A DNA stretch of 64,000 bases from Candidatus Cloacimonadales bacterium (GCA_963662275.1 OY759316.1:2432001-2496000); one strand, 5' to 3'. Positions 4,831-26,260 are shown, numbered from the stretch's first letter. Translations and numbers: made by a program. The notes: generated from the letters alone by a model not told the origin.

Positions 4831-4836
4831 TGTCAA
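4831..4836 (-). promoter_or_regulatory. sigma70-type -35 box (TTGACA) upstream of the 2611-4725 gene
   Basis: Perfect TTGACA on the minus strand about 105 nt before the start codon; -10 box not clearly canonical. Confidence 0.55.
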
Positions 4837-4870
4837 TATATTTAATGTTAATCTAATTCATGTAATAAAG

Positions 4871-6731
4871 GAGACTGTTCAAAATTAACCTCCATTTTAC
4901 GCAGCCTTATTGGTAGTGACAGAGAAAAAGTGGTCTAAGTGCGACCAATCCACATTTTCTTGACATATGCGGGAGATATTTAAACTTGCTAAAAGTGATT
5001 CCTGACGCATGATTGGTTGACCTTTATCGACCAGTTCTTTGAACCAAAGCGAAAACACAAGGTTGCGGGTGGTTTCTTCAGATTTTAGTCCAAATCTACC
5101 GGATGTCACCTTCTTGATTTTGCGGTTCCAGCGTTCAGAGACATTGGAAGTCAAACCTTTGCTGAGGTGTCTCCAATCACTAATGATATTGCTTTTGATG
5201 TATTCGGCGGCGGTTGGGGGAGTAATAGCTGTCAGGCTTGCGATACCCTTTTTCCTTCCGCCCGCCGTTTCTCTTCGGAAAGCTTTCATAATCCTCTTCT
5301 TAAAGAACTTGTCCCTGTCTTCAGGGAGATGACATTGACTGATTCTTTTGAAGAGATTTCGTATCTTATGGAACTTACAGAGTTGGTAATGGACTTTTGG
5401 AAACACTGTTTTTCTTGCAACTGCTAACGATTTACTGCCATCACTGACAATCAGGGTTGGATCTTTCCTGTAGAGCTGTCTGAAGGTTCTGAAACATGCT
5501 TCGAATGATTCTTTCTTTGTGTCAGGATACAACTCACAAAACAGAGGGATGTGAGTCACAAAATCAACAATACTGATGACATAGTACGGAATACCTTTGA
5601 TCTTCACATATTTCTCATCAATGCTGATCTTTCCGCTCCACTTACCGATTGAGTTCAGAATCAGGCTCTGCAGGTCAGCGATTTCATGCCAGAGATTTGA
5701 GACTGTAGCTTTACAGGTGTTGAGCAGCAAAGCTATCGTCTCGAAGTTCATACCGCTTCCAACCAGGTAATGTACCAGCAGACACAGGTTCTTGCGTTCC
5801 AGACTATGGAACGGCTTTGCATCGGCGGTTCTATGGGATGTATTGCCTTTAGCAGTCTTCATTTGTTCCAGGAGTCTGTCACAGATAACAGGTGTATTCT
5901 GCTGACCGGCAAGCAGTTTCAGCAGATGTACAGCATCACCGCCTACTGTCTTTTTCAGAAGAAGCTTCTGAGCTTGCTTAACTACAGACAGAGAATTGAC
6001 CTGAGAAGCATATTTGCAGAAAGTGGTATAGGACATTTTAAAATCATGATGGCTGATGAACTCCTGATACATGACATTTAAAGGTAAAAGCAGGTTATTG
6101 ATAACAAAATTCTCGATCTGAGGAATACACTCCAGCAGGTCAACTTTCCGGCTTAAATATGCCAGGATATCATGACCATGCTGCTCAAACTCTTGCCAGA
6201 AATTATGTACATTCCTGCGGTCTGCGTAGTTAAACAGATCAGCTATTTGCTGAAGTGTAAGGAGGTTGTCTCCGCCTATTCCTACTAATAAGCGTAGAAA
6301 CGCTATTAAGAACTTGTGGTTTGATGTTGTCTCAGGCAAAGTGAATGAAAATGGTACGTTAATACTTACATGGTATTGGTTACTTTCATGACTAACACTT
6401 ACCGCTTCTTGAATTGGAGTGTTTTTTTGTCATAATATCCTCCCTTTTGTTACCAGGTAACAAATGCCATTGAAGCTATAGCAAAAAACTTGTAAAGAAC
6501 TATTTTATATGATTTTAACTACACATTTAGTCAGAAACGGCTTCGAAACATTACTTATAATCGCGTGTTTTTCAATTTTAGTCAAAAAGCTTAACTTGTG
6601 ATTTGGTGTCCTTAGCAGAGCTTATCTGTCAATTCTGGAAGGTATGTTAAATTATGACCGTTTCGACCACTTTTTTCAACTTGCTACTTTCTAACTTATT
6701 GAATATTATGAATAACTTCATGAACAGTCTC
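4871..6731 (-). mobile_element. Insertion sequence copy 1 (1861 bp), DDE/Mutator-like (IS256/ISH6/IS6-related)
   Basis: Terminal IR GAGACTGTTCA at both ends; 8-bp target duplication TAATAAAG (4863-4870 and 6732-6739); near-identical copy at 24337-26197. Confidence 0.95.
4897..6339 (-). CDS. DDE transposase (true start possibly ATG 6433 via +1 shift)
   Basis: SIDEKY, IVSDG and NVSERWN DDE motifs; CKFH C(2)H motif; two HTH-like segments. Confidence 0.9.
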   Translation of the reverse strand: MPETTSNHKFLIAFLRLLVGIGGDNLLTLQQIADLFNYADRRNVHNFWQEFEQHGHDILAYLSRKVDLLECIPQIENFVINNLLLPLNVMYQEFISHHDFKMSYTTFCKYASQVNSLSVVKQAQKLLLKKTVGGDAVHLLKLLAGQQNTPVICDRLLEQMKTAKGNTSHRTADAKPFHSLERKNLCLLVHYLVGSGMNFETIALLLNTCKATVSNLWHEIADLQSLILNSIGKWSGKISIDEKYVKIKGIPYYVISIVDFVTHIPLFCELYPDTKKESFEACFRTFRQLYRKDPTLIVSDGSKSLAVARKTVFPKVHYQLCKFHKIRNLFKRISQCHLPEDRDKFFKKRIMKAFRRETAGGRKKGIASLTAITPPTAAEYIKSNIISDWRHLSKGLTSNVSERWNRKIKKVTSGRFGLKSEETTRNLVFSLWFKELVDKGQPIMRQESLLASLNISRICQENVDWSHLDHFFSVTTNKAA

Positions 6732-6977
6732 TAATAAAGTATGAGTATATTATATCAGCGCATTCAGTCGAACAACGGGGTCAATCCTGACACTCTGTGG
6801 AAATTACATGAAAGCTAAGTATCTGGAGTTCATTTGCCCTAGATAAATTTCTATGAAAAAGTAGCCAAAAGGGCAAGTGGACTTCATGATACGACCTTTC
6901 ATCCTCGGTAGCGAAAATCCTTTTCAGGGAAGTTCAAACCGTCAAACAAATAGCACATTAACGGCTCTTAATAGATT

Positions 6978-7018
6978 ACCGAGACATGACCGAGACATGA
7001 CCGAGACATGACCGAGAC
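6978..7018. repeat. 11-bp tandem repeat ACCGAGACATG x3.7
   Basis: Units at 6978, 6989, 7000 and a partial unit at 7011. Confidence 0.9.
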
Positions 7019-7136
7019 TTCTTTCGATAATGGCTTCGTTATGGTTCGTTCATTATTCCCTTCAATTTCCCTGATTTTTCAAGAGCCACTTTGGTGGATT
7101 AAGCGGTGAATTTATGAGTTCTATAAGCTACAATCA

Positions 7137-7580
7137 CTACGATACCCTGGTAAACACCGTAGTCTTCCCTAATAGTTTCACACCGAAATATATACGCAGT
7201 TCCAGTTCATTATGGTTCAGGAGTGTTGCTGAACATCGGTAGGTCTGTCCATTTGTTGGATAATACAGAATGCCGTTTTCGAACTTATTATCGCCTTGAA
7301 AAGTAAGCCCTGAAAGAGCTACAACATTGACCCGAGTACGATTACGAAACTTGGGATTAGGATGGTAGTTATCCAGCAAAGGCTTTCCTTCAGGATTCGT
7401 ATTATTCTTCAGCCAGATGATTTTTCCATAATAGATACTTCCCACACGGTAAACCTGAACTTTCGCATCTTTCGCATCCGTGAGCCAAACACCATTGATC
7501 TGATCAGGCACATATGTGTTACTTTCAATCGCAAAACACAATTGAGACAAAATAAATATTAGAATGAGCATAAACCTCAT
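7137..7580 (-). CDS. DUF2147-family exported protein
   Basis: Signal peptide; GVWLT...YYGKIIW...GILYYP.NG.TY...LELRIYFGVKLLGKT pattern. Confidence 0.8.
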   Translation of the reverse strand: MRFMLILIFILSQLCFAIESNTYVPDQINGVWLTDAKDAKVQVYRVGSIYYGKIIWLKNNTNPEGKPLLDNYHPNPKFRNRTRVNVVALSGLTFQGDNKFENGILYYPTNGQTYRCSATLLNHNELELRIYFGVKLLGKTTVFTRVS

Positions 7581-7973
7581 ACATTCTCCATATTATTTAT
7601 ATTCTAGTATTTCTATTATATTTATTAGCAAGCAAATTTCATAAATGGACAACTTCCAAAAACAGATAACATGGTCAAGTAGTAATCATTGTAATTATCA
7701 ATCTGCCTAACATATGGTACTTAACTCTCGAATTCGAATTAGATAATTACAGGCAAAAACTGATTTGTTTGAAAATAATATGCTAGATTCCTTTAACATA
7801 ATCTATAATAATAGCTGTTTACTCTTAGTTGTTGTTCTGACAGGAAAACGAATTAATATATATCATATGGGATTGAGAAAGCGCATATCAAGATCAATTC
7901 TCATGAACGCATTTGTATAAATTATATGTGATGTATCGTAGAAGATAGAATAATAGAAATTAGGAGTTAGAAA

Positions 7974-8627
7974 ATGAAACCATCTTTTGTAAAAATGATA
8001 AAAAGTAATTCGGGACTATGGCTTTTTGTATCCTTAACAATCCTGTTGTTGAGTATTCCCCTTTATGCAGTCCAGAATACTACTTTACAGAATAGTATAT
8101 CCGTGAATAATCTCCAGGCTGCCTATGCCAAAGAATTAAATGCACATACTTCATATCTTTTATATGCTCAAAAAGCTGATTCTGAAGGCTACGGAAAGCT
8201 GGCAGAACTCTTTCGTGTTCTGGCAAAATCAGAAAAAGTTCATGTAGAAAGATATGCCGGTATTTTGATTGATCTTGATATTACTCCAGTTGCAAATGAT
8301 TCTGTAGTTGTTGTCCTGACGACCAAAGAAAATCTGCGACAGGCAATTGAGGAAGAAAATTATGAAAACACTGTTCTTTATCCCAGTTTTGCACAGCAAG
8401 CAAGAAAAGACAAAATAAAATTTGCAAAAGCGGCATTTAGAGCTACCGGTGATGTTGAAGGTGTTCACGCTGTGCTTCTCAAACAAGCACAGAATAACAC
8501 AAAAAAATGGAAGAATCAAAATGTAACGTATTATGTCTGCCAAGTCTGTGGAGATGTATCCAAGTACAGACCAATGTTGTGTTCCGTCTGTTTATCCGCG
8601 GCAAAGAATATCAAGAAAGTGGACTGA
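7974..8627 (+). CDS. Rubrerythrin-family protein with N-terminal hydrophobic signal-like segment
   Basis: Di-iron ligands (E...EKVH, E..YE...EGVH) and C-terminal CxxC...CxxC rubredoxin-like domain; AGGAG RBS. Confidence 0.85.
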   Translation: MKPSFVKMIKSNSGLWLFVSLTILLLSIPLYAVQNTTLQNSISVNNLQAAYAKELNAHTSYLLYAQKADSEGYGKLAELFRVLAKSEKVHVERYAGILIDLDITPVANDSVVVVLTTKENLRQAIEEENYENTVLYPSFAQQARKDKIKFAKAAFRATGDVEGVHAVLLKQAQNNTKKWKNQNVTYYVCQVCGDVSKYRPMLCSVCLSAAKNIKKVD

Positions 8628-9012
8628 TTCCAAGCGTATAATGAGCATTAATTCTTTTTATTAATACCTGTTTTTCTTAATATTATTTGCAACGCCTATT
8701 ATCAAGTAATAAAAAAATATCTTGACTTGATTTGTAATAGAATTTAGAAATGATTTATAAAAATAATTAACGCTGAAAGAGGTAATACTAAGTAATCTTG
8801 CTCCCCCACAACATACAATTTATTCACGCTATTTTTAATTGAAATTCATAGTCCATCCATGTTTGATTTATAGGAGGAATACTGTTCCTGTTGGGTTATT
8901 GCCAGATTACTTCTCCAGGACAAAGAGATAATTACGTGCAAGATTTTTTCCAATTCACAGCGAATGTTTGCTGTTGGATTAGCACTATAACAAGATGCGA
9001 TGAGGAGAAAAA

Positions 9013-11217
9013 ATGCGAAACACGACGTTACTAATATGCCTATTCTTAGCCCTATTCCCCATATTTTGCCAAGCCATTTATCATGAAGATTGTCTGATAC
9101 CGGATTTCACAAATGAGACAATTAATCGGGATAATCTACTATATTTCAGTGGCGGTATATTATTCAGGGACTTCAGAATCTACGATATGACAGATTTGAG
9201 CAATCCCGTTATGCTCTCTACGACAAATATCCCTTGTTTAAACGGTACTACATGGCGGATGGCATTGCAGGATAATATTATTTATACAACTTGTAATTCA
9301 GATAGTCTATATTTGACAATCCTGGATGTAGCGAATCCTATGCAACCACAGATTTTGAGCAGAAGATGTTTTAGTATGGATCCTTACAATCTGATTGTGC
9401 AAGGTCATATTGTATATCTGACAAGCCATGATAATTATCTACATATCATTGATGTCTCTGATCTACAAAATCCAATTCAAATTAACTCAATTGCTTTAGG
9501 AGACTCCACGCAACATATTGGTGAAATGAAACTCAAGGATCATTCTCTCTACATAGCGATGAACACCATTTTAAAGATATACGATATCACAAATGCAGAG
9601 CAACCCGCATTTATTGGTGAATATCCAACAACTCCGTATAAGTATCATTTAACAATTGGAGACAGTAAGGCTTATCTGTCTGGATCATCATCAGATTCAA
9701 CCGGTATCGAAATAATAGATGTAAGTAATTCAGAGAATATTCATCAAATTGGGACGATACAGAATGTTTCGGGAGAAATATTTTATTCTGATAATCATTT
9801 GTACACATGTCATGATACCAGAGTCTCAAATTTCGATGTCTCTGACCCAAACAACCCAATTCTGCTTGGTTTCTATGAAAATCCCTTGGGATTGGGAATC
9901 AGCGATGTACGAAATGGATATGTGTATGCGCAAAGCTTGTATAATTTCCTACGTATCAATATGAATGATCCTTCAAATCAAGTACTAATGGGTAAGTATG
10001 AATCGCCCATTGATCCTGCCAGCGTACAAATACAAGGAAATAAGGCAATTTTTAGATTACATTCACAATATGACAATATTGTTGGAACAGAATATTCCCT
10101 GCAGATACTGGATATTACCCAAACCAATCAGATTCAACATACTAGCACAATTTCAAGTACAAATTATATCACACCTATCAAAATTATAGGTCAATATGCT
10201 TACGTCATCAATTACAGTAATTCAGCGCTACTTATATATAATATCTCTGATCCTCATGAACCATTATTGGTACACTCCATGGGGATACTTCTTGAAGGAG
10301 CTGCTATTAGAAGAATGGAAGTAGTGGAAAATAGAGCTTACTTACTAAGTATGCATACTCTTTATGTTTTGGACATAGCGGATGTAAGTAATCCCAGCAT
10401 CCTTGGTCAGCTTCCTCAATATGATTATAATATGGTTGACCTGAGAATGAGCGATAATATAGCCTATGTCGCCACCGATGACGGAGGCATTAATCTGTAT
10501 GACATCTCCAATCCAACTTCAATAAGCGCTTTGGGAAGGTTTACTAATCCTGTCGAAAATAGCGCATTGCGTTTTTTCGAGATGTCCGGAGAAATTGCCT
10601 ATCTAGCTGCCAAAAATAATGGAGTTCAGGTTGTGAACCTGCAAGACCCAGCAAATCCAGTGCTGGTTCAAACAATCAAACCCACAACCGACATATGTGT
10701 TACACCAATTGCCATATATAATCATTATCTGTTTTTTGGTGATGATTACCGGAATATTATCTATTCCTATGATATTAGCAACCCGTTGCAGCCCGTTTTT
10801 CATCATAGTTTGATATGGAATCAAATGACTGATGTCTTAAGTTCGAATAACAATAGAATCTACTCGATCAGCAGCACAAGTATCAATGATTTATCCTTGT
10901 CAGAAGGATTCTCACCCATTCAAGATCAGACGATTCCCACAGAGTCAATGAGTTTGAGTAATTACCCGAACCCCTTTAACCCAGAAACGAAACTTTCATT
11001 TACATTGGCAAAACAGACTTTTGTCAAATTAGAGGTATATAATGTACGAGGACAAAAAATAAAAGCACTAGCTTCTGAATCTATGTCTGCCGGTAAACAT
11101 CAGATTTCCTGGGATGGAAAAGACGATTTTGGGAAACCTGTAGCTTCAGGTATGTACTTCTCCCGCCTGGAGACACCAAGTCAAAAGGTAACCCGGAAGA
11201 TGTTGCTGCTCAAATAA
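9013..11217 (+). CDS. Secreted LVIVD-repeat beta-propeller protein with FlgD-Ig/Por-type C-terminal domain
   Basis: Signal peptide; repeated L.I.D(V/I)S(N/D)P..P motifs; NYPNPFNPET tail; GAGGAG RBS. Confidence 0.85.
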   Translation: MRNTTLLICLFLALFPIFCQAIYHEDCLIPDFTNETINRDNLLYFSGGILFRDFRIYDMTDLSNPVMLSTTNIPCLNGTTWRMALQDNIIYTTCNSDSLYLTILDVANPMQPQILSRRCFSMDPYNLIVQGHIVYLTSHDNYLHIIDVSDLQNPIQINSIALGDSTQHIGEMKLKDHSLYIAMNTILKIYDITNAEQPAFIGEYPTTPYKYHLTIGDSKAYLSGSSSDSTGIEIIDVSNSENIHQIGTIQNVSGEIFYSDNHLYTCHDTRVSNFDVSDPNNPILLGFYENPLGLGISDVRNGYVYAQSLYNFLRINMNDPSNQVLMGKYESPIDPASVQIQGNKAIFRLHSQYDNIVGTEYSLQILDITQTNQIQHTSTISSTNYITPIKIIGQYAYVINYSNSALLIYNISDPHEPLLVHSMGILLEGAAIRRMEVVENRAYLLSMHTLYVLDIADVSNPSILGQLPQYDYNMVDLRMSDNIAYVATDDGGINLYDISNPTSISALGRFTNPVENSALRFFEMSGEIAYLAAKNNGVQVVNLQDPANPVLVQTIKPTTDICVTPIAIYNHYLFFGDDYRNIIYSYDISNPLQPVFHHSLIWNQMTDVLSSNNNRIYSISSTSINDLSLSEGFSPIQDQTIPTESMSLSNYPNPFNPETKLSFTLAKQTFVKLEVYNVRGQKIKALASESMSAGKHQISWDGKDDFGKPVASGMYFSRLETPSQKVTRKMLLLK

Positions 11218-11302
11218 CCTAGCATTGACTGGCAGTGGCAATCCCTAACATAAGTAGAATTCGACAATACCATTGTCTCATACTACAGTTTACCAAACTA
11301 TG

Positions 11303-14275: not shown

Positions 14276-14557
14276 AGTTCCTACTCCAACATACGTATTT
14301 GTTTATGATGCAAGATACTTATTATAATGATTGAATTAGCGTCCAGATAATAATTTACATTGATAGGAAATGGAAGAGAAAACTAATCCATTATAAGATA
14401 AATCAAAAGTATTAATATATTGACAGGATTTTATACATTTTGCATTTTAACCAATCTGGTTGTAGGAAATTAAAAATTACTTAGACTAATATAGTGTGTA
14501 GTATAGACTTAACCCATTTTTCAATCATTTTACTGAAACAAATAAATAAATTGAAGG

Positions 14558-17500
14558 ATGTCTATTATGTTTTACAAATCTTTAATTCTACTTTTCCTAT
14601 TAACAGTCCTCTCAACTTTATGCTATTCTACAGCGACAACTGACTATTTTCGATCAAATGGGTCTGGGTCATGGGCTAATGCAGGTACATGGCAATCTTC
14701 TTCTGATAATTCAAACTGGGTTCCATCCACATTAGCACCTACAACAGCAGCGAACACTATCACAATTCGTAGTGGAAACATAGTCACCGTTGATGCTACA
14801 CTCTCTACTGATCAGACGACTGTAGATGCTGAAGGAGAAATTGATGTCAGTAGTGGTATAACCATGACAATTGCAAATGGCAGTGGTACAGACATGACAG
14901 TCAATGGTATCTTCAGAAACAATGCAGGAACTATTACAACGACTGGAGCTACCTTATCTTTCGGTAGTGGCGGAAAATATCAACATAATTATGTTACTGC
15001 TTCGGGTGCAATTCCTCTTGCAACTTGGAATGCTGCATCAACTTGTGAAATCATCGGTTATGCAACCTGGTCAAATCCCCCTTCTAATCTAGGACAAAGC
15101 TTCGGTAATTTTACCTGGAATTGTCCTTCACAAAACGGAAATATCAGTGCTGGTGGTGCCTTAACTTCAATAGCTGGCAATTTAACTATTGCCAGTACCG
15201 GTGCATCTGCAAAGGAATTTCGATTAGCTGCAACAACGTCACCAACATTAAATATCGGTGGTAATTTAATCCTTTCGGGTGGAACGCTGAATCTGAGTTC
15301 CGGTACAGGGAGCCCGGTTATTAATGTTGCAGGTTACTTGATGATTTCAAATGGAATATTAAACATGAGTTCCAGTTCTGGAAGTAGTACTATTAATTTA
15401 TCCGGGAATTATACAATGACAGGAGGTAATTTAACTGAGACAGGATCTGGTGCTGCCAATAGCTTCAATTTCGCAGGAACAATACCACAGATAATTTCGT
15501 TGACAGGTACACAGATCATCAGCAATACAATCAATTTTACTGTGAATAGCAGCGCAATAGTACAATTTGAAACATCTTCCACTGTTTTGGGTGGATCTGA
15601 TGGTTCTTTTACTGCAGCCACGACATCAACATTAATGATAAAACATCCAAACGGTATCACTGCTTCTGGTACATCGGGGTGTATTCAGACCACTGGTACC
15701 CGAACATTTAATGTTGCTGCTAATTATACTTATAATGGCAACAGCATGCAATATACAGGAAATGGGTTACCAACAGCCGTCAATAATCTAACTATTAACA
15801 ATATTGCAGGGGTAACCTTATCTGCTTCTTGTTCAGTAAGTGGTTTAATCTTATCAACACCACTAACAATTGGCTCCAATGTTTTAAGTATTGCCGGAAG
15901 TGTTTCCGGCACAGGCGGTTTAATTGGGGGCTCTACTTCAAATCTCAGTGTCAGTGGCAGTGGTTCTATTGTATTGCCTGTAATTTCTTCGGGATTGAAT
16001 AATTTTAGTGTGACACGATCGAATGGCGTTACCCTCGGATGTTCAGTTACTGTAAGCGGGACATTTACTTTTACGAGCGGAACTTCATTAACCTTAGATG
16101 TAGGAATCTATACACTTACAATCAATGGAACTGCCAGATTTAATGCTACCAATTATATAACTGGAGCAGGTAGTTTCATTCTAACAAGCGGAGCTACGCT
16201 TCAAACGTCCAATTCGTTGGGAATTATTGGTGGTAGCAGTCCCCAAGGAAGTGTGCAAACTGTTACTCGTAATTTTGACACAAGTGCCAATTACACATTT
16301 AGTGCTACAAGTACAAACATTAATACTGGAGGGGGATTACCTTCTGCTGTCAACAATCTAACTATAAGTGGTCCGTATGCAGTATATTTATCCACATGGG
16401 CATGTACAGTTAACGGAATATTAACTGTTACAAATAGTGTTTTCTATGTTGCAGGCGGGCAAGTACTTTCAGTACATGGAACTGCTGTCTTTGATGCGAC
16501 TAGTACTATATACAGTTTATCATCCGGAAGTGTTTTTCAATTAGAAAGTGGAGCTACACTTAAAACAGCTAATGTAGATGGAATTAGAGCTTCAGGGGCT
16601 TATGGGAGCATTCAAACTACAATACGTTCTTATGATACTGGAGCTAATTATACATATAATGGAACTTCAGCCCAAACAACGGGAACTGGTTTACCTGCTA
16701 ATGTACATGATCTAACAATTATTAATCCAGCCGGGGTTACATTAACCTATTCATGTGCTGTTGAAGGTACATTTACTTTATCTTCAGGAAATATTGATTC
16801 TAATTCAAAAACACTTACGATTAACGGGACAGCCATTTTCAATGCTTCAAATTATGTGAGTGGTGCTGGAAGCTTTGTTTTAGCCAGTGGGGCAAACCTT
16901 CAAACAGCTAATCCACAAGGTATTACTTCGAGTGGATCTGGAAGCGTACGAACAACCACAAGTACTTTCAGTACAAGTGCCAATTATGTCTATAACGGCA
17001 TTGCAACACAAGTTACTGGAAGCAGTTTACCGGCAACCGTTAACAATCTGACGATCAGTAATAATGCCGGAATATCATTGTCTAACTCATGTTCTGTCAG
17101 CTCTGTTTTAACCTTAACCACACCATTGACTATTGGAGCTTATACTCTGACAATTGCCGGTTCAATTTCCGGTACAGGGGGATTAGTTGGCGGTAATTCA
17201 TCCAATCTTTCTATAAATGGTACCGGTCCAATTGTTATACCTTCTGTAATATCTTTAAATAATCTAATTATCAATCGAACAGGCGTTGTTTCTCTGGTCT
17301 ATTCACTTAGCGTGAACGGATCTCTAATATTATTAACAGATCTTACTATCGGTGCATACTCTTTAACAATTTCTGGTTCAATTCCAACTGTTATCGGTGG
17401 TCTCATCAGTGGAAGCAGTTCCGATCTAGTTATTGGTGGAAGTGGTGCCTTGATATTACCTGCCATTACTTCTGGTTTGCGGAATTTATCAATCAATAGA

Positions 17501-19309
17501 AGCGGTACTGTTACACTTGGAAGCTCGCTTTCAATAAGTAATACACTAACATTGACTTCCGACCTGTCGATAGGTTCAAACACACTGACAATCAACGGTA
17601 CAATTCCATCCAGTACAGGTGGTCTTATAGGAGGAAGCTCTTCTAATATTGTTATTGATGGCAGCACTGTCATGACAATGCCTTCTATTACTTCAGGATT
17701 GCATGATTTAACAATTAATAGAAGTGGTGGAGTTACACTTGCTAATTCCTTATCCATCGGAGGAGAACTTACTTTAACAAATGGTACCTTGGCAGCAGGT
17801 TCTTTTCTGAACATGGCTACAGGATCGACAGTTTTAAGAAGTAACGGTTTGTTGACAGGAACGATACAAGGCAGCGGGATCTATTCAGTTGTTTATACAG
17901 GTACTGATAAATCAACAGGGTATGAATTGACTGGCAGCGGTCTTGGAAACCTGACAATTCATTTGGATAGTGGTAGTACTTTAACGCTTGATCGATCAGT
18001 TACTGTGGATAATGATGAATTATTGACCTTCATACAAGGTTCAATCACGCTAGCAAATTATAATCTTACTATTAATGGAAGTTATGCAGGAACAAATCAA
18101 TTTATCTATAATGGTACCGGCATATTGGGCGGAGGAAATATAGGCAGCAATGCTAACGTACAGATTTCATTATCTTCCCCTGCTTCTATCCCTGCTGTGG
18201 TTAACACTCTTGAAATCTCACCCGGTTCAGGAAATACAATTACTTTACCTGGGGATGTAACAACAACTTCGCTCATCTTTACTAATGGCAGTTTAGCATT
18301 CAATAGCCATATTCTTTCACTGGCCGGGAAAGATTTTGCTGTTCAAGGATCGAATAGCATTTCTGCTTTGAACATCAGTATGTCACCAACATCACACACA
18401 TTCTCCGGATATACAAGCATTCCTCATACCTGGCAAACCAATAGTATCTTCAATGGAACAGTGGATATTTTTCTCACCTACCCTTCCTCTTTATCGATTT
18501 CACCGAAAATGAAAGTATATAACAGAAATCATTCGGATGGAGAAACAAACTGGAATTTCATCGCTCTATTGGATTCCAATGATCATGATACCTATAGGTC
18601 TGTTCATCTGACAGGAATTACTACTTTGAATGGTTCTGCTAAAGGTGATCTTGATTGGACTCTTGTTGAACCGGATCAGGATTTACCTGTGGAATTAACT
18701 TCCTTTACTGCGATATCTTCTACTTCTCAGTTGTTGGTGACTTTACAATGGACTTCAGGATCTGAAACTAATAACCTGGGGTTCAATATTATAAGGTCGA
18801 ATAACGCAGATCTTTCAAATGGTGTATGCCTGAATGCAAATATTATACAAGGTACTAATACATCTCAAAATCATACATATCATTTCTCTGATCTGACTGT
18901 TGAAGCTTCCAATACATATTACTACTGGCTCGAAAATATCGATTACAGCGGTATTAGTATGTACAACGGACCCGTTATAGTTCAGGTACTTGAACAGGAA
19001 AATCCTGATAATCCTCCTGTAATACCGGTTGAATTCACTCTTTTAGATAAAGCATATCCAAATCCTTTCAACCCGGAAACCAATATTTCCTTTCAATTGA
19101 AAACACCAAGTTTTGTAAATATTACGATTTATGATATTAAGGGACAAAAAATACAGACACTTACTTCTAGGAATTGGGAATTGGGAAGGCATAATCTTGT
19201 TTGGTGTGGAACTGATGAAAAAGGAAATGCTGTTAGTAGCGGTATCTATTTCTATCGAATGATTGCGGGTAAGTACTCTTCAACCAAGAAAGTCGTTCTA
19301 GTGAAGTAA
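14558..19309 (+). CDS. Large Ser/Thr/Gly-rich repetitive beta-strand (beta-helix/adhesin-like) secreted protein with LPVEL module and FlgD-Ig/Por-type tail
   Basis: Signal peptide; repeated ANYTYNG...QxTGxGLPxxVNNLTI units; DLPVELTSF; YPNPFNPET tail. Start may be ATG 14567. Confidence 0.85.
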   Translation: MSIMFYKSLILLFLLTVLSTLCYSTATTDYFRSNGSGSWANAGTWQSSSDNSNWVPSTLAPTTAANTITIRSGNIVTVDATLSTDQTTVDAEGEIDVSSGITMTIANGSGTDMTVNGIFRNNAGTITTTGATLSFGSGGKYQHNYVTASGAIPLATWNAASTCEIIGYATWSNPPSNLGQSFGNFTWNCPSQNGNISAGGALTSIAGNLTIASTGASAKEFRLAATTSPTLNIGGNLILSGGTLNLSSGTGSPVINVAGYLMISNGILNMSSSSGSSTINLSGNYTMTGGNLTETGSGAANSFNFAGTIPQIISLTGTQIISNTINFTVNSSAIVQFETSSTVLGGSDGSFTAATTSTLMIKHPNGITASGTSGCIQTTGTRTFNVAANYTYNGNSMQYTGNGLPTAVNNLTINNIAGVTLSASCSVSGLILSTPLTIGSNVLSIAGSVSGTGGLIGGSTSNLSVSGSGSIVLPVISSGLNNFSVTRSNGVTLGCSVTVSGTFTFTSGTSLTLDVGIYTLTINGTARFNATNYITGAGSFILTSGATLQTSNSLGIIGGSSPQGSVQTVTRNFDTSANYTFSATSTNINTGGGLPSAVNNLTISGPYAVYLSTWACTVNGILTVTNSVFYVAGGQVLSVHGTAVFDATSTIYSLSSGSVFQLESGATLKTANVDGIRASGAYGSIQTTIRSYDTGANYTYNGTSAQTTGTGLPANVHDLTIINPAGVTLTYSCAVEGTFTLSSGNIDSNSKTLTINGTAIFNASNYVSGAGSFVLASGANLQTANPQGITSSGSGSVRTTTSTFSTSANYVYNGIATQVTGSSLPATVNNLTISNNAGISLSNSCSVSSVLTLTTPLTIGAYTLTIAGSISGTGGLVGGNSSNLSINGTGPIVIPSVISLNNLIINRTGVVSLVYSLSVNGSLILLTDLTIGAYSLTISGSIPTVIGGLISGSSSDLVIGGSGALILPAITSGLRNLSINRSGTVTLGSSLSISNTLTLTSDLSIGSNTLTINGTIPSSTGGLIGGSSSNIVIDGSTVMTMPSITSGLHDLTINRSGGVTLANSLSIGGELTLTNGTLAAGSFLNMATGSTVLRSNGLLTGTIQGSGIYSVVYTGTDKSTGYELTGSGLGNLTIHLDSGSTLTLDRSVTVDNDELLTFIQGSITLANYNLTINGSYAGTNQFIYNGTGILGGGNIGSNANVQISLSSPASIPAVVNTLEISPGSGNTITLPGDVTTTSLIFTNGSLAFNSHILSLAGKDFAVQGSNSISALNISMSPTSHTFSGYTSIPHTWQTNSIFNGTVDIFLTYPSSLSISPKMKVYNRNHSDGETNWNFIALLDSNDHDTYRSVHLTGITTLNGSAKGDLDWTLVEPDQDLPVELTSFTAISSTSQLLVTLQWTSGSETNNLGFNIIRSNNADLSNGVCLNANIIQGTNTSQNHTYHFSDLTVEASNTYYYWLENIDYSGISMYNGPVIVQVLEQENPDNPPVIPVEFTLLDKAYPNPFNPETNISFQLKTPSFVNITIYDIKGQKIQTLTSRNWELGRHNLVWCGTDEKGNAVSSGIYFYRMIAGKYSSTKKVVLVK

Positions 19310-19368
19310 GGGCAAATCTATGACTCAGATAATCGTCATAAGTGATTACTACAGATTGGAGTTTTAAA

Positions 19369-22300
19369 ATGAGTAATAAATTGATTACAATTCTCTTTCT
19401 CTTTTTGGGAATAACAGCTCTTTGTTTTGCACAATCAGTAACTTTAAGTTCACCAGATCAAATAGCTGCAGGTAATGCAACTCAAGGTAATGTAAAACAA
19501 GTTATCTTCCATTTTCACCTGAACCGGGATAATGTTGGTATCATAAATTTAACAGGAGTTAATTTTACTACCGGTGGGAATTATCAAGCCAGTGATTTAA
19601 CCAGGTTTCAATTATGGTTCAGCGGAGCTGATAATATTTCTTCAGCAGTTCAAATCAGCTCTGATATTACCACGAACATGGGACCTGGATCGCATACATT
19701 CTCCTCATTTTCAACCTTACTTGCTGCAAGTTATACTCGATATTTATTTGTAACAGCAGACATTGCACTCAATGCTACCACTTCAAAATATGTGAATGTA
19801 TCCGGATGGTCAACAAGCAACTTCATTGTTAGTTCTGGTGCAAAATCAGGCACAGCTCCGGCAGGAGGGGCGCAAACCATCACTCCTTTTACTACTTTAG
19901 CAACAGACTACTTTCGTTCTAATTCAACAATCGGTAACTGGTCGTCTCCAGGATTCTGGCAATCGTCTCACGATAATATTACCTGGGCAACTGCAACCTT
20001 ATCTCCTTCAAGTACAGCGAATACGATTACTGTTCTCAGTGGTCATTCAGTTAATTTCGATACCAGTATTTCCATAGATCAAACTGTCATCAATGCTGGT
20101 GGGCAAGTAATGATAAGTAATGGCACAACACTTACAATTGCCGATGGTTCAGGCACAGATCTGACTGTGAATGGAACTCTGAGAAATAATGAGGGAATCA
20201 TCATTACATCGGGAATCCTTGCTTTTGGTAGCGGAGGTTTATACCAATGTAATTTTGCATCAATAGTAGGGGTAATTCCAACTGCTACCTGGAACACAAA
20301 TTCAACCTGTGAAATTATTGGTTATACTAACTTTTCTGGCATTCAAACCGGGTTAAGCCAGAATTTTGGTAATTTTAAATGGAATTGTCCAGACCAAACA
20401 GCAAACATCACAGCAAATTCAACACTTCTGACAGTGAAAGGGAATTTGGAAATCGCTGCTGGACAATTTCAATTAACTGCAACAGGTACTCCTTCACTTG
20501 CCTTAGGTGGTGGATTGAATATTTCCGGCGGAACATTGGATATGAGTTCAGGCACTGGAAATGCAGTAATTAATCTTAAGGGTAATTTTACCATGTCTGG
20601 AGGTGTCCTTACTGAAACTGGTTCTGGAGCAGCAAATAATATAAACTTTAGTGGAACAACAGCGCAAGTGATTTCAATCACAGGTCTATCAACCATCAGT
20701 AATACCATTAATTTTGCAGTAAATAGCAGTGCTATAGCGGAGTTTGAAACAGAATCGACAGTTTTAAATGGTTCAATAGGTACTTTTACAGTAAACAGCG
20801 GTTCAACATTGATAATCAGGCATGAAAATGGTATTGCATCCACAGGGAACAACTCTGGTTGTATACAAATAACAGGTACCAGGACATTCAGTTCTACCGC
20901 AACATACTCATTCAAAGGTTATGCAAATCAAGCTACTGGAAATGGATTACCAACGACTATCAGCAACTTAATCGTGAATCATGATGGTGGTGGAGTCACT
21001 TTATCCGGTGCATGTACTGTTACGACTGCATTATCATTATATACTGCTCTTTCAATAGATGCAAACACATTGACACTCAACGGAACGGTACCAGTTCGTA
21101 CAGGTGGGATTATTGGTGGAAATTCTTCAAACTTGGTTATTGGTGGAACTGCCTCCTTAACGATACCTGAAATCAATTCCGGTTTACAGAATTTGACAAT
21201 CAATGGTAACGGCGCAATTACTTTGGGAAACTCAGTTACAATTTATAATATCTTTACCCTCGCTTCATCCGGCAATGGATATTTGAGTGTGGGGAATTAT
21301 ACTTTAACGATTAACGGAACTGCCGTTTTCAATGCGTTAAGCTATGTAAGTGGAGCAGGCAGTTTTGTATTAGCGAGTGGAGCTACCCTTCAAACCCCTA
21401 ATACTTCAGGAATTACATTAAGTGGAACAACAGGAAGCGTTCGAACTACCACGCGTATTTTCAACACAGATTCAAATTATTCCTACAATGGTACTTCGGC
21501 ACAGTTAACCGGAAATGGATTACCGGATACCGTCCATGATCTGACAACCACAAATCTTTATGGAGTTACCATATCTACGTCTTGTATTGTAAATGGAACC
21601 TTTACTCCTTCCGGTGATTTATTTATAGGAAATAATAGTGTCATTACGGTAATGGGAGCAGCTGTTTTTAATACTTTATATTATGTTAGTGATGCTTCAA
21701 GCAGTGCCAGTACTTTTATTCTATCAAGTGGAGCTACCCTTCAAACAGCACATGCTGCAGGTATTACTTCGAGTGGTGCAACCGGCAGTGTACGGACAAC
21801 CGTACGATCTTTCAATTCCAATGCCAATTACACTTATAATGGCACAGTAGCTCAGGTAACAGGTAGCGGATTACCAGCTTCTGTTTTGAATCTAACTGTC
21901 AGTAATGCTGCTGGAGTAACATTATCCGGCTCCTGTGCTGTCAATGGAGTTTTTACACCTTCAACAGGGTATCTAAATGTTGGTAATTATTTACTGAATA
22001 TTAATGGAACAGCCAGATTTAATGCTACAAATTATGTTATCGGTGCTGGTAGTTTTATTTTAGCCAATCATGCTACACTTGAAACAGCGAATGTGAATGG
22101 CATTACAACCAGCGGTGGTGGTAGTGTCCAGACAAATACTCGAATATTCAATACAAATGCTAATTATGTTTTTAATGGCACGACGGCTCAAGTAACAGGA
22201 AATGGGTTACCGGGAACTGTTCGTGATTTGACTGCCAGTAATATTGCAGCGCTTACTTTATCAGGTTCCTGTAATGTTAATGGCACATTTACACAATCTG

Positions 22301-24180
22301 TTGGGAATTTGGATGTTAATATTTATGCCCTAACGATTAATAACACAGCAATATTCAATTCCAGCAATTATGTGTTTGGGGCAGGTAGTTTTGCTTTATC
22401 CAATGGAGCTATACTGCAGACTTCCAATGTTGATGGTATTAACATGCCACCGGCAAACACCGGTAGTGTACGAACAACATCACGTTCTTTTGACATAGGG
22501 GCGAATTATACTTATAGTGGAAGTTCCACTCAGTACAGTGGAAATGGTTATCCGGATCTATGTACTGGAACATTACAAGTTAGTAAATCGAATAGTGCTT
22601 CGTTCTATCTGAGTACATCACGCACAATTGGCACAAACGGTAAAATCAATTTAGCTTTAGGTACATTCGCTGCAAGTACTTCATTAACTATGGGTACAGG
22701 ATCATCCATAATAAGGAATGCAGGTTATTTGAGCGGTACAATCCAAGGTAATAATGCATATTCAGTGACTTATATAGGAAACAGTAAAGCAACTGGAAAT
22801 GAGCTTTCGGGTAGCGGACTTGGAAACATTACGATTGATTTGAATAGTGGAAATACAATAACACTAAATCGCAACTTAATTGTAGATGATTTGGAAGTGC
22901 TTAGTTTTTTGCAGGGATCCCTGGCTTTATCGAATTTCAACCTTACAATGAATGGAAGCTACAGTGGAGCGAATCAGTTCATCTATAACGGAACAGGATC
23001 ATTGAATGGGAATAACGTAGGTTCCAATGCTTGCATTAGACTGACAGTTGTATCACCTTCTTCATTACCCGTTAATGTAAATATTCTTGAAGTCAATCCT
23101 GGCGAAGGGAATACTATCACTCTTCCGGGAGATGTTTCAACAGCTACACTGCTGATTACCGATGGAAGTTTAGGATTAAATAGTCATATTTTAACACTTG
23201 CAGGGAAAGATTTTGCGTTACAAGGCTCCAATAGCATTTCTGCTCTCGATGTTAATATGACCTCAACATCGCATACATATAATGGATATCCAAGCTTAGC
23301 ACATACCTGGCAGACCAGTGGAATTTTTAGCGGAGCATTAAGCATCATCTTTTCATATCCTTCATCATTATCTACATCTTCGGTAATGACAGTCTTGAAT
23401 AGAGATCATGTAGTTGTAGAAAGCAACTGGAACAATGTCGTTACTTTAAGTTCAGTCTTATATGAATCTAATTATTCAATCACATTACATAATATAACTA
23501 CCTTGAATGGAGCAAAAAAAGGTGACCTGGATTGGACACTTATAGAACCTGATCAGGATTTACCAGTCGAATTGACTTCCTTTCAAGCACACATAACTCA
23601 GGATCTCTTTGTGAAACTGCAATGGATGACACAATCCGAAACAAATCTGACAGGCTATAACGTATTTCGTTCATTGAACGAAGACGTAAATTCAGCGATG
23701 CAGGTGAATTCATATCTTATACCTGCAACAAACACTTCTGTAACTCATACATATGATTTTCAGGATACGAATGTTACCAGTGATAATACGTATTACTATT
23801 GGTTACAGCATATTGATCATGCTGGGATAGTTGGTTATTTCGGACCGGTATCAATTACGGTAAATAGCAATGAAATTGAAAATCCATCTCCTATTATTCC
23901 TTTGACTACAGGTCTTAATGCGCTGTATCCAAATCCATTTACCGGAAACACAATCATTCGATATTATCTGAGCAAAGACATTTCGACTACAATCGATATT
24001 TATAATACGAAAGGTCAGTTGGTTCGTTCTTTCCCAAATACAGCCAAGACAGCAGGTAACCAATCACTGGCGTGGGATGGATTTGATAATAACGGAAGGA
24101 CTTGCAGTTCAGGTATCTATCTCGTCAGAATGTTAGCTGGTAAAGATCATTCCTATCTCAAGGCTACTCTTATTAAGTAA
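19369..24180 (+). CDS. Tandem paralog of the upstream large repetitive secreted protein, with an extra N-terminal domain
   Basis: Same TDYFRSN and repeat architecture; EPDQDLPVELTSF; YPNPF tail. ATG 19369 has a GGAG RBS and a signal peptide (ORF track starts at GTG 19342). Confidence 0.85.
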   Translation: MSNKLITILFLFLGITALCFAQSVTLSSPDQIAAGNATQGNVKQVIFHFHLNRDNVGIINLTGVNFTTGGNYQASDLTRFQLWFSGADNISSAVQISSDITTNMGPGSHTFSSFSTLLAASYTRYLFVTADIALNATTSKYVNVSGWSTSNFIVSSGAKSGTAPAGGAQTITPFTTLATDYFRSNSTIGNWSSPGFWQSSHDNITWATATLSPSSTANTITVLSGHSVNFDTSISIDQTVINAGGQVMISNGTTLTIADGSGTDLTVNGTLRNNEGIIITSGILAFGSGGLYQCNFASIVGVIPTATWNTNSTCEIIGYTNFSGIQTGLSQNFGNFKWNCPDQTANITANSTLLTVKGNLEIAAGQFQLTATGTPSLALGGGLNISGGTLDMSSGTGNAVINLKGNFTMSGGVLTETGSGAANNINFSGTTAQVISITGLSTISNTINFAVNSSAIAEFETESTVLNGSIGTFTVNSGSTLIIRHENGIASTGNNSGCIQITGTRTFSSTATYSFKGYANQATGNGLPTTISNLIVNHDGGGVTLSGACTVTTALSLYTALSIDANTLTLNGTVPVRTGGIIGGNSSNLVIGGTASLTIPEINSGLQNLTINGNGAITLGNSVTIYNIFTLASSGNGYLSVGNYTLTINGTAVFNALSYVSGAGSFVLASGATLQTPNTSGITLSGTTGSVRTTTRIFNTDSNYSYNGTSAQLTGNGLPDTVHDLTTTNLYGVTISTSCIVNGTFTPSGDLFIGNNSVITVMGAAVFNTLYYVSDASSSASTFILSSGATLQTAHAAGITSSGATGSVRTTVRSFNSNANYTYNGTVAQVTGSGLPASVLNLTVSNAAGVTLSGSCAVNGVFTPSTGYLNVGNYLLNINGTARFNATNYVIGAGSFILANHATLETANVNGITTSGGGSVQTNTRIFNTNANYVFNGTTAQVTGNGLPGTVRDLTASNIAALTLSGSCNVNGTFTQSVGNLDVNIYALTINNTAIFNSSNYVFGAGSFALSNGAILQTSNVDGINMPPANTGSVRTTSRSFDIGANYTYSGSSTQYSGNGYPDLCTGTLQVSKSNSASFYLSTSRTIGTNGKINLALGTFAASTSLTMGTGSSIIRNAGYLSGTIQGNNAYSVTYIGNSKATGNELSGSGLGNITIDLNSGNTITLNRNLIVDDLEVLSFLQGSLALSNFNLTMNGSYSGANQFIYNGTGSLNGNNVGSNACIRLTVVSPSSLPVNVNILEVNPGEGNTITLPGDVSTATLLITDGSLGLNSHILTLAGKDFALQGSNSISALDVNMTSTSHTYNGYPSLAHTWQTSGIFSGALSIIFSYPSSLSTSSVMTVLNRDHVVVESNWNNVVTLSSVLYESNYSITLHNITTLNGAKKGDLDWTLIEPDQDLPVELTSFQAHITQDLFVKLQWMTQSETNLTGYNVFRSLNEDVNSAMQVNSYLIPATNTSVTHTYDFQDTNVTSDNTYYYWLQHIDHAGIVGYFGPVSITVNSNEIENPSPIIPLTTGLNALYPNPFTGNTIIRYYLSKDISTTIDIYNTKGQLVRSFPNTAKTAGNQSLAWDGFDNNGRTCSSGIYLVRMLAGKDHSYLKATLIK

Positions 24181-24336
24181 TGCAATTCAGATGTTGGATT
24201 TTCATGAAAGCTTACCAAAAATTAGCAAATTACCGATACTGTTCATTGAGTTGTCATCCCCGATATGATCGGGGATCCACACTATATGAAATTGTATCGA
24301 AAACCCGTTTTCTGGGAACAAAAAACCCATTATAAA

Positions 24337-26197
24337 GAGACTGTTCATGAAGTTATTCATAATATTCAATAAGTTAGAAAGTAGCAAGTTGAAAAAAGTG
24401 GTCGAAACGGTCATAATTTAACATACCTTCCAGAATTGACAGATAAGCTCTGCTAAGGACACCAAATCACAAGTTAAGCTTTTTGACTAAAATTGAAAAA
24501 CACGCGATTATAAGTAATGTTTCGAAGCCGTTTCTGACTAAATGTGTAGTTAAAATCATATAAAATAGTTCTTTACAAGTTTTTTGCTATAGCTTCAATG
24601 GCATTTGTTACCTGGTAACAAAAGGGAGGATATTATGACAAAAAAACACTCCAATTCAAGAAGCGGTAAGTGTTAGTCATGAAAGTAACCAATACCATGT
24701 AAGTATTAACGTACCATTTTCATTCACTTTGCCTGAGACAACATCAAACCACAAGTTCTTAATAGCGTTTCTACGCTTATTAGTAGGAATAGGCGGAGAC
24801 AACCTCCTTACACTTCAGCAAATAGCTGATCTGTTTAACTACGCAGACCGCAGGAATGTACATAATTTCTGGCAAGAGTTTGAGCAGCATGGTCATGATA
24901 TCCTGGCATATTTAAGCCGGAAAGTTGACCTGCTGGAGTGTATTCCTCAGATCGAGAATTTTGTTATCAATAACCTGCTTTTACCTTTAAATGTCATGTA
25001 TCAGGAGTTCATCAGCCATCATGATTTTAAAATGTCCTATACCACTTTCTGCAAATATGCTTCTCAGGTCAATTCTCTGTCTGTAGTTAAGCAAGCTCAG
25101 AAGCTTCTTCTGAAAAAGACAGTAGGCGGTGATGCTGTACATCTGCTGAAACTGCTTGCCGGTCAGCAGAATACACCTGTTATCTGTGACAGACTCCTGG
25201 AACAAATGAAGACTGCTAAAGGCAATACATCCCATAGAACCGCCGATGCAAAGCCGTTCCATAGTCTGGAACGCAAGAACCTGTGTCTGCTGGTACATTA
25301 CCTGGTTGGAAGCGGTATGAACTTCGAGACGATAGCTTTGCTGCTCAACACCTGTAAAGCTACAGTCTCAAATCTCTGGCATGAAATCGCTGACCTGCAG
25401 AGCCTGATTCTGAACTCAATCGGTAAGTGGAGCGGAAAGATCAGCATTGATGAGAAATATGTGAAGATCAAAGGTATTCCGTACTATGTCATCAGTATTG
25501 TTGATTTTGTGACTCACATCCCTCTGTTTTGTGAGTTGTATCCTGACACAAAGAAAGAATCATTCGAAGCATGTTTCAGAACCTTCAGACAGCTCTACAG
25601 GAAAGATCCAACCCTGATTGTCAGTGATGGCAGTAAATCGTTAGCAGTTGCAAGAAAAACAGTGTTTCCAAAAGTCCATTACCAACTCTGTAAGTTCCAT
25701 AAGATACGAAATCTCTTCAAAAGAATCAGTCAATGTCATCTCCCTGAAGACAGGGACAAGTTCTTTAAGAAGAGGATTATGAAAGCTTTCCGAAGAGAAA
25801 CGGCGGGCGGAAGGAAAAAGGGTATCGCAAGCCTGACAGCTATTACTCCCCCAACCGCCGCCGAATACATCAAAAGCAATATCATTAGTGATTGGAGACA
25901 CCTCAGCAAAGGTTTGACTTCCAATGTCTCTGAACGCTGGAACCGCAAAATCAAGAAGGTGACATCCGGTAGATTTGGACTAAAATCTGAAGAAACCACC
26001 CGCAACCTTGTGTTTTCGCTTTGGTTCAAAGAACTGGTCGATAAAGGTCAACCAATCATGCGTCAGGAATCACTTTTAGCAAGTTTAAGTATCTCCCGCA
26101 TATGTCAAGAAAATGTGGATTGGTCGCACTTAGACCACTTTTTCTCTGTCACTACCAATAAGGCTGCGTAAAATGGAGGTTAATTTTGAACAGTCTC
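24337..26197 (+). mobile_element. Insertion sequence copy 2 (1861 bp)
   Basis: IR GAGACTGTTCA; 8-bp target duplication ATTATAAA (24329-24336 and 26198-26205); one visible difference from copy 1 (26089 vs 4979, Ser/Asn). Confidence 0.95.
24729..26171 (+). CDS. DDE transposase (true start possibly ATG 24635 via +1 shift)
   Basis: Identical to copy 1 except N/S near the C-terminus. Confidence 0.9.
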   Translation: MPETTSNHKFLIAFLRLLVGIGGDNLLTLQQIADLFNYADRRNVHNFWQEFEQHGHDILAYLSRKVDLLECIPQIENFVINNLLLPLNVMYQEFISHHDFKMSYTTFCKYASQVNSLSVVKQAQKLLLKKTVGGDAVHLLKLLAGQQNTPVICDRLLEQMKTAKGNTSHRTADAKPFHSLERKNLCLLVHYLVGSGMNFETIALLLNTCKATVSNLWHEIADLQSLILNSIGKWSGKISIDEKYVKIKGIPYYVISIVDFVTHIPLFCELYPDTKKESFEACFRTFRQLYRKDPTLIVSDGSKSLAVARKTVFPKVHYQLCKFHKIRNLFKRISQCHLPEDRDKFFKKRIMKAFRRETAGGRKKGIASLTAITPPTAAEYIKSNIISDWRHLSKGLTSNVSERWNRKIKKVTSGRFGLKSEETTRNLVFSLWFKELVDKGQPIMRQESLLASLSISRICQENVDWSHLDHFFSVTTNKAA

Positions 26198-26231
26198 ATT
26201 ATAAATATATATCTTTTCAGCAACAAACATC

Positions 26232-26260
26232 TTGACACCACATTACATCTTTGCTAAATC
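26232..26260 (+). promoter_or_regulatory. sigma70-type promoter of the 26289 gene
   Basis: TTGACA (26232-26237), 17-nt spacer, TG-n-TAAATC (26255-26260); AGGAGG RBS follows. Confidence 0.6.

Follow-up and report, generated by a model that had tools for sequence, protein, structure and literature searches.

Promoter-directed insertion has been described in bacteria for one Mutator family, TnGBS/ISLre2, and for one lineage of a second, the ISKra4 group, in the account given by Guerillot et al. 2014 (PMC3942029). According to that survey, TnGBS/ISLre2 elements (p-MULT 3) insert in one orientation 15-17 bp upstream of sigma-A -35 boxes, for which its authors proposed a contact with the transcription initiation complex; thirteen ISKra4-group elements lie upstream of predicted sigma-A promoters, in both orientations and at about the TnGBS distance; and IS256 insertion is reported as random. 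Here we describe an insertion sequence (IS) of another lineage, present twice in a 64,000-nt stretch of the genome of a Candidatus Cloacimonadales bacterium (GCA_963662275.1, OY759316.1:2432001-2496000; hereafter the window, with positions counted from its first letter), which inserts in a single orientation with its right end 33-35 nt upstream of a -35-type TTGAC box. We know of no demonstration of how TnGBS/ISLre2 and ISKra4-group elements find promoters. The spacing of the present family falls outside the 30 bp from element ends to which, by the legend of its fig. 4, the promoter count of the earlier survey was limited (PMC3942029), so that similar rulers in other families may have been missed as well.

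The preliminary description of the window, drawn from its sequence alone, had reported two copies of the element, each followed after 34 nt by a TTGACA hexamer pointing into a secreted-protein gene. The copies, their duplications and their TTGACA boxes lie where it placed them, and the gap is exactly 34 nt in each:

24337-26197, plus strand: IS copy B, 1861 bp, ends GAGACTGTTCA...TGAACAGTCTC, one of 39 full-length copies in the genome
4871-6731, minus strand: IS copy A, 1861 bp, 99.9% identity to copy B
24329-24336: target duplication of copy B, left, ATTATAAA
26198-26205: target duplication of copy B, right, ATTATAAA
6732-6739: target duplication of copy A at the IS left end, TAATAAAG (plus strand)
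4863-4870: target duplication of copy A at the IS right end, TAATAAAG (plus strand)
26232-26237, plus strand: TTGACA, targeted -35-type box of copy B, starting 34 nt past the IS right end
4836-4831, minus strand: TTGACA, targeted -35-type box of copy A, starting 34 nt past the IS right end
24729-26171, plus strand: transposase open reading frame (ORF) of copy B, 480 amino acids from a TTG start, a Mutator/IS256-like DDE enzyme
4897-6339, minus strand: transposase ORF of copy A, counterpart of that of copy B
26289-29033, plus strand: gene downstream of the promoter targeted by copy B, 914 amino acids, with a type IX secretion system (T9SS) sorting tail
2611-4725, minus strand: gene downstream of the promoter targeted by copy A, 704 amino acids, with a T9SS sorting tail

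The IS ends form a perfect 11-bp terminal inverted repeat, and an 8-bp target duplication surrounds each copy. The right end is the one adjoining the transposase stop codon, from which it is separated by 26 nt, and the TTGACA beyond it points outward, into a gene. The two spacers between IS end and TTGACA are unrelated to each other, as had been claimed.

Two copies by themselves are a weak, post-hoc match, and it is the whole genome that removes the doubt. The host genome is a single 4,378,784-bp contig (39% G+C, Cloacimonadota) in which every IS copy was oriented by its transposase gene, and its 39 full-length copies comprise 32 at 99.9-100%, two at 98.2% and five at 92.1% identity. TTGAC begins 33-35 nt past the right end in 37 of the 39 (33 nt, n = 3; 34 nt, n = 26; 35 nt, n = 8), without exception on the transposase strand, and does so in 30/32, 2/2 and 5/5 copies of the ~100%, 98% and 92% subfamilies, respectively. 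Background rates in the host genome are 8.9e-4 per position and strand for TTGAC and 3.0e-4 for TTGACA, and the chance expectation for TTGAC in a 3-nt window is ~0.1 of 39 copies, against the 37 observed. As a control, the 80 nt outside the left end hold a TTGAC in one copy only, ~53 nt out. The 8-bp duplication is perfect in 36/39 copies and no two flanks are alike, so the copies represent independent insertion events, as had been argued for the window pair from ATTATAAA and TAATAAAG. In four public runs that contain the IS, available as contigs, its depth is ~30-40x that of the flanks, and none of these contigs was seen to span an empty site or a circle junction; nor did a same-genus genome (G100) show an empty orthologous site, as it matches the flanks only at 66-75%, in short coding pieces.

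A few duplications depart from the pattern. That of L015 is apparently shifted by one base, and of the copies at G000:C1:2889658-2891518 and G000:C1:608527-610387 (L030) one has unrelated 8-mers on its two sides and the other a 1-nt mismatch; recombination between copies may account for the unrelated 8-mers.

The same rule governs the relatives. Homologues of the transposase come mostly from Cloacimonadota, where 25 of 232 genomes of the phylum, the host genome included, hold a match at E = 1e-20 or better, and the family is small, with 93 cluster representatives reaching E = 1e-30 or better in a set of 1.84 billion proteins. Loci were pooled from the phylum scan, a species-genome collection and metagenome contigs; filtering discarded 32 flanks as duplicates, 16 that measured under 41 nt, 13 loci lacking the transposase C-terminus and five lacking a recognisable end, and 82 distinct right-end junctions were then scored by script. 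TTGAC lies at 34 nt in 32 of these, at 33 nt in 24 and at 35 nt in 11, which makes 67/82 junctions that obey the rule, and the transposases at these junctions are 33-76% identical to that of the window; across this range both the inverted-repeat tip and the TTGAC target are retained. A second near-closed Cloacimonadales genome (G194; transposase 38% identical, tip GTGCACAGTCTC) has five of its seven right ends at exactly 33 nt, and on a 7.3-Mb contig labelled Candidatus Vecturithrix a relative is followed by TTGACT at 34 nt. The modal spacing differs by clade, being 34 nt at 54% identity or more (16/26) and 33 nt below 42% (18/28). Among the nonconforming junctions, three have TTGAC at 31, 32 or 37 nt with doubtful ends, and six have no TTGAC in range, two of which (L121 and L125) are mis-anchorings by the script that otherwise fall at 34 and 35 nt. 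One relative (L128) carries a one-mismatch site, TCGAC, 34 nt from its end. The preliminary description had proposed oriented, promoter-guided insertion at a fixed distance, to be checked by collecting copies here and in relatives and measuring from IS end to TTGACA; that measurement found both the fixed distance and the orientation, and the targeting rule is real, statistically overwhelming and family-wide.

The remaining six nonconforming junctions adjoin the left end of another family member. In L043:2978, L046:560 (minus orientation), L114, L115, L170 and L178 a gap of 6-9 nt separates the right end from the left tip of a different family member, with no TTGAC at 33-35 nt, and at L043/L090 the 8-bp duplication directly adjoins the resident element. 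Sites next to a resident inverted repeat look like another class of target, reminiscent of the inverted-repeat targeting reported for IS30. Elsewhere in G194 two copies (L070 with L064 and L068 with L065) are split ~100 nt from their left ends by a ~1.6-kb insert with a 474-codon ORF, and another element, ending in GGACAGTCTC, lies 9 nt outside each of their left tips, a nesting of mobile elements.

The 37 host flanks, aligned on TTGAC, define what is being targeted. TTGAC itself, the set-defining motif, is present in 37/37 and is followed by A in 27 and T in 8; upstream of it, C stands at -1 in 26/37 (A in 9/37), A or T at -5 in 37/37 within an A/T-rich stretch from -7 to -3, and A at -9 in 28/37. 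Neither the 8-bp duplication nor the remainder of the spacer carries any signal in these flanks, and no -10 box stands at a fixed distance. We compared this logo with host promoters by means of crude gene calls taken from long ORFs (2837 genes, 1644 upstream regions). Intergenic DNA, which is 14% of the genome, holds 30% of TTGACA sites, and upstream of genes TTGACA points toward the gene 547 times and away from it 189 times; Shine-Dalgarno words aside, CTTGAC and TTGACA are the most strongly oriented hexamers. The TTGAC core is found 586 times forward and 127 times reverse, an excess of 459, as against at most 26 for every single-mismatch variant. The 523 oriented TTGACA sites that do not adjoin an IS peak 40-80 nt before the start codon and show the same upstream logo as the IS targets in weaker form, 50% of them having A at -9 and 40% having C at -1; downstream, a slight A/T enrichment marks the -10 region, where 53% have T at +27. 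At the 16-19 bp spacing of a -10 element, TAnnnT is seen in 14% of targets, as compared with 22% of these generic sites and 9% of sites within genes. Host RpoD ends in a standard region 4, presumably similar to the E. coli region 4.2 motif.

Because of the gene-oriented excess, the 40-80 nt peak, the near-absence of such an excess for mismatch variants and the standard RpoD region 4, we conclude from these sequence statistics that TTGAC(A) is very probably the -35 box of the host housekeeping sigma factor. The target of the IS is thus an extended -35 region of ~15 bp (A at -9, A/T from -7 to -3, C at -1, TTGAC, A/T) that matches the host promoter consensus, and insertion is oriented and measured with respect to it. 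Another host DNA-binding protein, distinct from sigma, might instead bind TTGAC with its A/T-rich flank and so provide a landmark for the transposase. The -10 signal after TTGACA is indeed weak genome-wide, as such a protein would allow, but the orientation to genes, the peak before start codons and the standard region 4 all suit a -35 box and no candidate protein is known, and we regard this explanation as very improbable.

A flank score trained on the 523 ordinary upstream TTGACA sites, none of which adjoins an IS, separates these classes further. Its median is 2.94 for IS targets, 1.72 for ordinary sites (p = 9e-6) and -2.03 for intragenic TTGAC. Occupancy increases with site quality, a copy being present at 15 of the 81 top-scoring sites, and four clear intragenic targets rank at the 89th-99.8th percentile of intragenic TTGAC sites (p = 0.0013). 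These high scores, the intragenic targets included, indicate that the targeting step itself favours promoter-like flanks, for which selection after insertion cannot account.

A purely selective origin of the pattern, in which insertion is random or AT-biased and only the copies upstream of promoters survive, was weighed against the insertion contexts. In pre-insertion sites rebuilt by script (ORF threshold 80 codons), 32 of the 37 targeted copies are intergenic and five lie within an ORF of at least 80 codons, and in 34 of the 37 a co-oriented ORF of at least 80 codons begins 9-239 nt after the box; L024, the sole intergenic target without a downstream ORF, has no Rfam or tRNA gene there either. 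The two exceptions to the rule, L003 and L009, lie in ORFs of the rebuilt site, one at the extreme end of a 208-codon ORF and the other inside a 387-codon ORF. Selection surely purges most gene-disrupting copies, in keeping with the intergenic majority, but it cannot yield a spacing fixed to ~1 nt together with a single orientation, it leaves the intragenic copies that still obey the rule unexplained, and most copies are 99.9-100% identical and hence recent. As the sole cause, selection is therefore extremely unlikely. The same contexts qualify the earlier expectation that targeting spares both the gene and its core promoter, which describes most copies but neither the two off-target ones nor the five inside ORFs.

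The downstream genes are ordinary and varied. Both window genes do carry a T9SS tail, in agreement with the secreted-protein context first noted, but among the 23 other downstream ORFs that were scanned only two have a sorting tail, and the set is mixed (signal peptidase, FMN reductase, epimerase, ZIP transporter, NIF3, aminotransferase, translational GTPase and others). A preference of the IS for secreted-protein genes is thereby ruled out, and it is by coincidence that both window copies adjoin such genes.

The transposase matches the Pfam families MULE (PF10551; 32.6 bits, gathering threshold 27.6) and Transposase_mut (PF00872; 27.7 bits, gathering threshold 21), both of which are also matched at E <=1 by 54/54 aligned members, and by these profiles it is assigned to the Mutator superfamily of DDE transposases. 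D241, D300 and E402 are invariant in the aligned members, as is a C321-x2-H324 pair (the C/D-x2-H motif after the second D). In an AlphaFold model (mean predicted local distance difference test score, pLDDT, 84) a helical stretch at 322-412 separates the strand at 317-320 from E402, and the core aligns with those of ISCth4 and retroviral integrases; we infer that the three residues are the DDE triad. The best structural match is ISCth4 (PDB 6xgx, 6xg8, 6xgw; Foldseek E ~2e-7; VIA Z 18.1, root-mean-square deviation 4.7 over 256 residues), whose transposase is also the sole match in a search of the PDB by sequence (E = 0.033). Family assignment is less straightforward. The best NCBIfam score is 47.8 bits on the IS256 model NF033543 (cut-off 150), and the IS6 model gives 42.3 bits (cut-off 125); NF033529 (ISLre2, cut-off 200) gives no match at E up to 10 and reaches 10.8 bits, on the 92% subfamily, in a genome search, and NF033572 (ISKra4, cut-off 205) gives no match to the IS in either the protein or the genome search. 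Fourteen further family members or outliers score 36-78 bits on the IS256 model, and none of them reaches any IS-family cut-off. The lineage is thus unclassified, falling below every NCBIfam IS-family cut-off while having an IS256-like fold.

The ISCth4 alignment covers only model residues 178-442, on chain residues 106-387, which makes the second helix-turn-helix (HTH) and the catalytic domain IS256-like; model residues 1-177 gave no alignment with ISCth4 residues 1-105. Two HTH-like segments had been noted in the protein, and both are HTH units in the AlphaFold model. The first (helices 29-35 and 41-53) is predicted within a winged-helix-like unit of residues 1-65, and its recognition helix carries the invariant R41 and N46 in an otherwise poorly conserved N-terminal region. 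A helical domain and then a linker follow, with residues 133-178 poorly conserved and modelled at low confidence. The second (helices 199-205 and 210-219, unit residues 178-232) aligns with the HTH that precedes the ISCth4 catalytic domain. Foldseek with residues 1-235 returned nothing at E <=0.001, its top rows being sigma factors at E 0.4-2, and VIA matches of residues 177-235 to the HTHs of sigma region 4, LuxR, KorB and LsrR (Z 5-6.6) stay below the level that exceeds a common helical arrangement. Many of these weak, non-specific fold matches are to sigma region 4 domains. Pfam Sigma70_r4 is matched weakly by 14/54 members (best E = 0.0076).

Two explanations of how the -35 region is recognised deserve serious weight. 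In the one we favour, and to which we give about an even chance, promoter-bound RNA polymerase with its sigma factor is the reader and the transposase is tethered to the holoenzyme. The transposase would then not read sequence itself; its N-terminal region (~180-205 residues with no aligned ISCth4 counterpart) would dock on the holoenzyme at the -35 region by contacting sigma region 4, the alpha C-terminal domain or both, and the transpososome would attack the first free DNA, about three helical turns upstream. The geometry to be explained is shown by the copies themselves: 33-35 nt, made up of the 8-bp duplication and a further 25-27 nt, separate the right end from the TTGAC downstream of it, and the staggered cuts are thus made immediately ahead of the entire promoter, at about -70 to -63 when the hexamer is taken to begin at -36. 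In E. coli footprints, -70 to -63 is just past the upstream edge of the holoenzyme with its alpha C-terminal domains. Cuts at this place leave intact the gene, its core promoter and the A/T-rich bases directly above the box. Orientation probably stems from unlike subterminal sequences internal to the identical 11-bp inverted repeats, and transposition probably proceeds by copy-out/paste-in via a circle, as in IS256.

We favour the polymerase as reader because a flank score derived from ordinary promoters ranks the IS targets above those promoters and the intragenic targets high among intragenic TTGAC sites. Several observations weigh against it. The -10 region is matched no better at IS targets than at ordinary TTGACA sites (a mean best match of 3.27 versus 3.48 of 6), so an open complex is not obviously required; precision to ~1 nt at 27-34 bp from the hexamer also fits a rigid, DNA-reading transposase; the invariant R41 and N46 in the N-terminal recognition helix are as expected of a domain that reads an invariant DNA word; and the flank preference depends in part on only four intragenic sites.

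If the transposase reads cTTGACa itself, its likeliest reader is the N-terminal winged-helix-like unit (residues ~1-65); the unit at 178-232 would hold the inverted repeat, and a fixed transpososome geometry would set the cuts three helical turns away. This explanation, which we would place somewhat below an even chance, is the simpler one, accounts for the precision equally well, and needs no -10 box, in keeping with the targets. Two conserved HTHs could pair with two conserved DNA words (the inverted-repeat tip and TTGAC), and the invariance of R41 and N46 would then have a direct cause. Insertions at good motifs inside genes (5/37) and the relative beside TCGAC also fit, and the 1-nt difference in modal spacing between clades implies that the ruler belongs to the element. 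The weak likeness to the HTHs of sigma region 4 and LuxR points the same way, but these fold matches do not rise above the common helical arrangement, and the sigma-like HTH is the very one that aligns with the HTH just before the ISCth4 catalytic domain. Moreover, the preference reaches ~10 bp above the hexamer and mirrors the host consensus position by position, which would be a coincidence for an independent domain but automatic if sigma and alpha do the reading. A more specific idea is that the transposase alone mimics sigma, recognising -35 boxes with an HTH that is winged or resembles sigma region 4, and so delivers DNA to a point three helical turns ahead of any strong promoter; this idea is tentative and on present evidence rather unlikely.

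Compared with the systems described by Guerillot et al. 2014, the family resembles TnGBS/ISLre2 in its Mutator-superfamily DDE transposase, its insertion in a single orientation that brings the right inverted repeat up to a sigma-A-type promoter, its sparing of gene and promoter, and, as far as that paper describes them, in duplications of 8-9 bp and inverted repeats ending in C (PMC3942029). It differs in its spacing of 33-35 nt rather than 15-17, and in its hosts, which are Cloacimonadota and metagenome bacteria rather than the Firmicutes, Fusobacteria and Synergistetes named there (PMC3942029). The extra length had been put at about one helical turn, but is in fact ~18 bp, or ~1.7 turns. 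The earlier view that the element is distinct from ISLre2/TnGBS stands, with 10.8 of 200 bits on the ISLre2 model. With the ISKra4 group of p-MULT 4 it shares a Mutator-like transposase and insertion upstream of predicted sigma-A promoters, whereas those elements are reported to have near-perfect inverted repeats and to insert in both orientations at about the TnGBS distance (PMC3942029), and the ISKra4 model does not match the present IS. The IS256 family shares the ISCth4 fold, the best NCBIfam score and 8-bp duplications, and one of its elements, ISTwi1, has the same GAGACTGT tip; the present transposase nevertheless scores far under the cut-off and its N-terminal ~180-205 residues do not align with ISCth4 1-105. 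Ty3 and other RNA polymerase III-directed yeast retrotransposons contact the initiation machinery and thereby integrate at a set distance ahead of the transcription start, an analogy also cited by Guerillot et al. (PMC3942029). These are eukaryotic retroelements in an unrelated integrase context, and the contact is demonstrated for them whereas here it is proposed. Four of the five supplementary files of the earlier survey, which were searched, hold no Cloacimonas entry (PMC3942029), and a full-text literature search returned no paper on an IS 33-35 nt upstream of -35 boxes nor on Cloacimonadota IS elements; a named but unpublished ISfinder entry is possible. The family is a new lineage of promoter-targeting IS, akin to the TnGBS/ISLre2 and ISKra4 groups but outside both.

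The element also has features that bear on its own expression. The transposase open frame spans 510 codons from 24639 and has no start codon before the TTG at 24729, but relatives of 508 amino acids have an N-terminus homologous to what its first 30 codons encode. An ATG in another frame closely precedes it:

24635-24647, plus strand: ATG behind a good Shine-Dalgarno sequence and ahead of seven consecutive A, in a frame other than that of the transposase, the same in all 39 copies
6421-6433, minus strand: mirror of this ATG/seven-A site in copy A

The arrangement is identical in 39/39 copies across the three subfamilies (92-100% identity), whereas the relatives start in frame, and the seven-A site is likely to be one of programmed transcriptional slippage or +1 frameshifting that would limit transposase output. 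In the 298-nt leader before the ATG, TTGACA at 24436-24441 (plus strand) and TTGACT at 24483-24488 (plus strand) are candidate transposase promoters; their flank scores are poor (0.3 and 0.6), which may protect the element from its own kind. Inside the 3' end of the transposase gene every copy carries an antisense, promoter-like cTTGACa (26104-26109, minus strand, flank score 13.1, within the range of real targets), which may be an antisense promoter and is hit by another copy in 0/39 cases. By eye, no terminator-like hairpin was seen between the transposase stop codon and the IS end in the window copy, so read-through from the IS into the downstream gene is possible. Apart from the IS, a 132-nt unit recurs five times at 16095-22441 of the window, in copies that have diverged to 64-70% identity and are probably repeated protein domains; they lie within two adjacent giant genes (14558-19309 and 19342-24180), the second with a T9SS sorting tail.

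For the Mutator-like transposases, a third promoter-targeting lineage with a ruler ~18 bp longer supplies a second geometry for comparison, and any model must account for both 16 and 34 bp. A rule that is kept in nearly all copies of one closed genome and in relatives down to 33% identity is a clear starting point for biochemistry. Should the transposase prove to be a sigma mimic, promoter targeting would have been solved independently for a third time among Mutator-like transposases, and nature would offer, in one protein, a tool that inserts DNA next to a promoter and leaves that promoter intact. For the host, the insertions form a free promoter map of an uncultured phylum, and they suggest that promoters in Cloacimonadota may combine a nearly invariant TTGAC -35 box with a weak -10. 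They also show how 39 copies, amounting to 1.7% of the DNA, can reside in a genome while disrupting few genes, an IS load borne at low cost.

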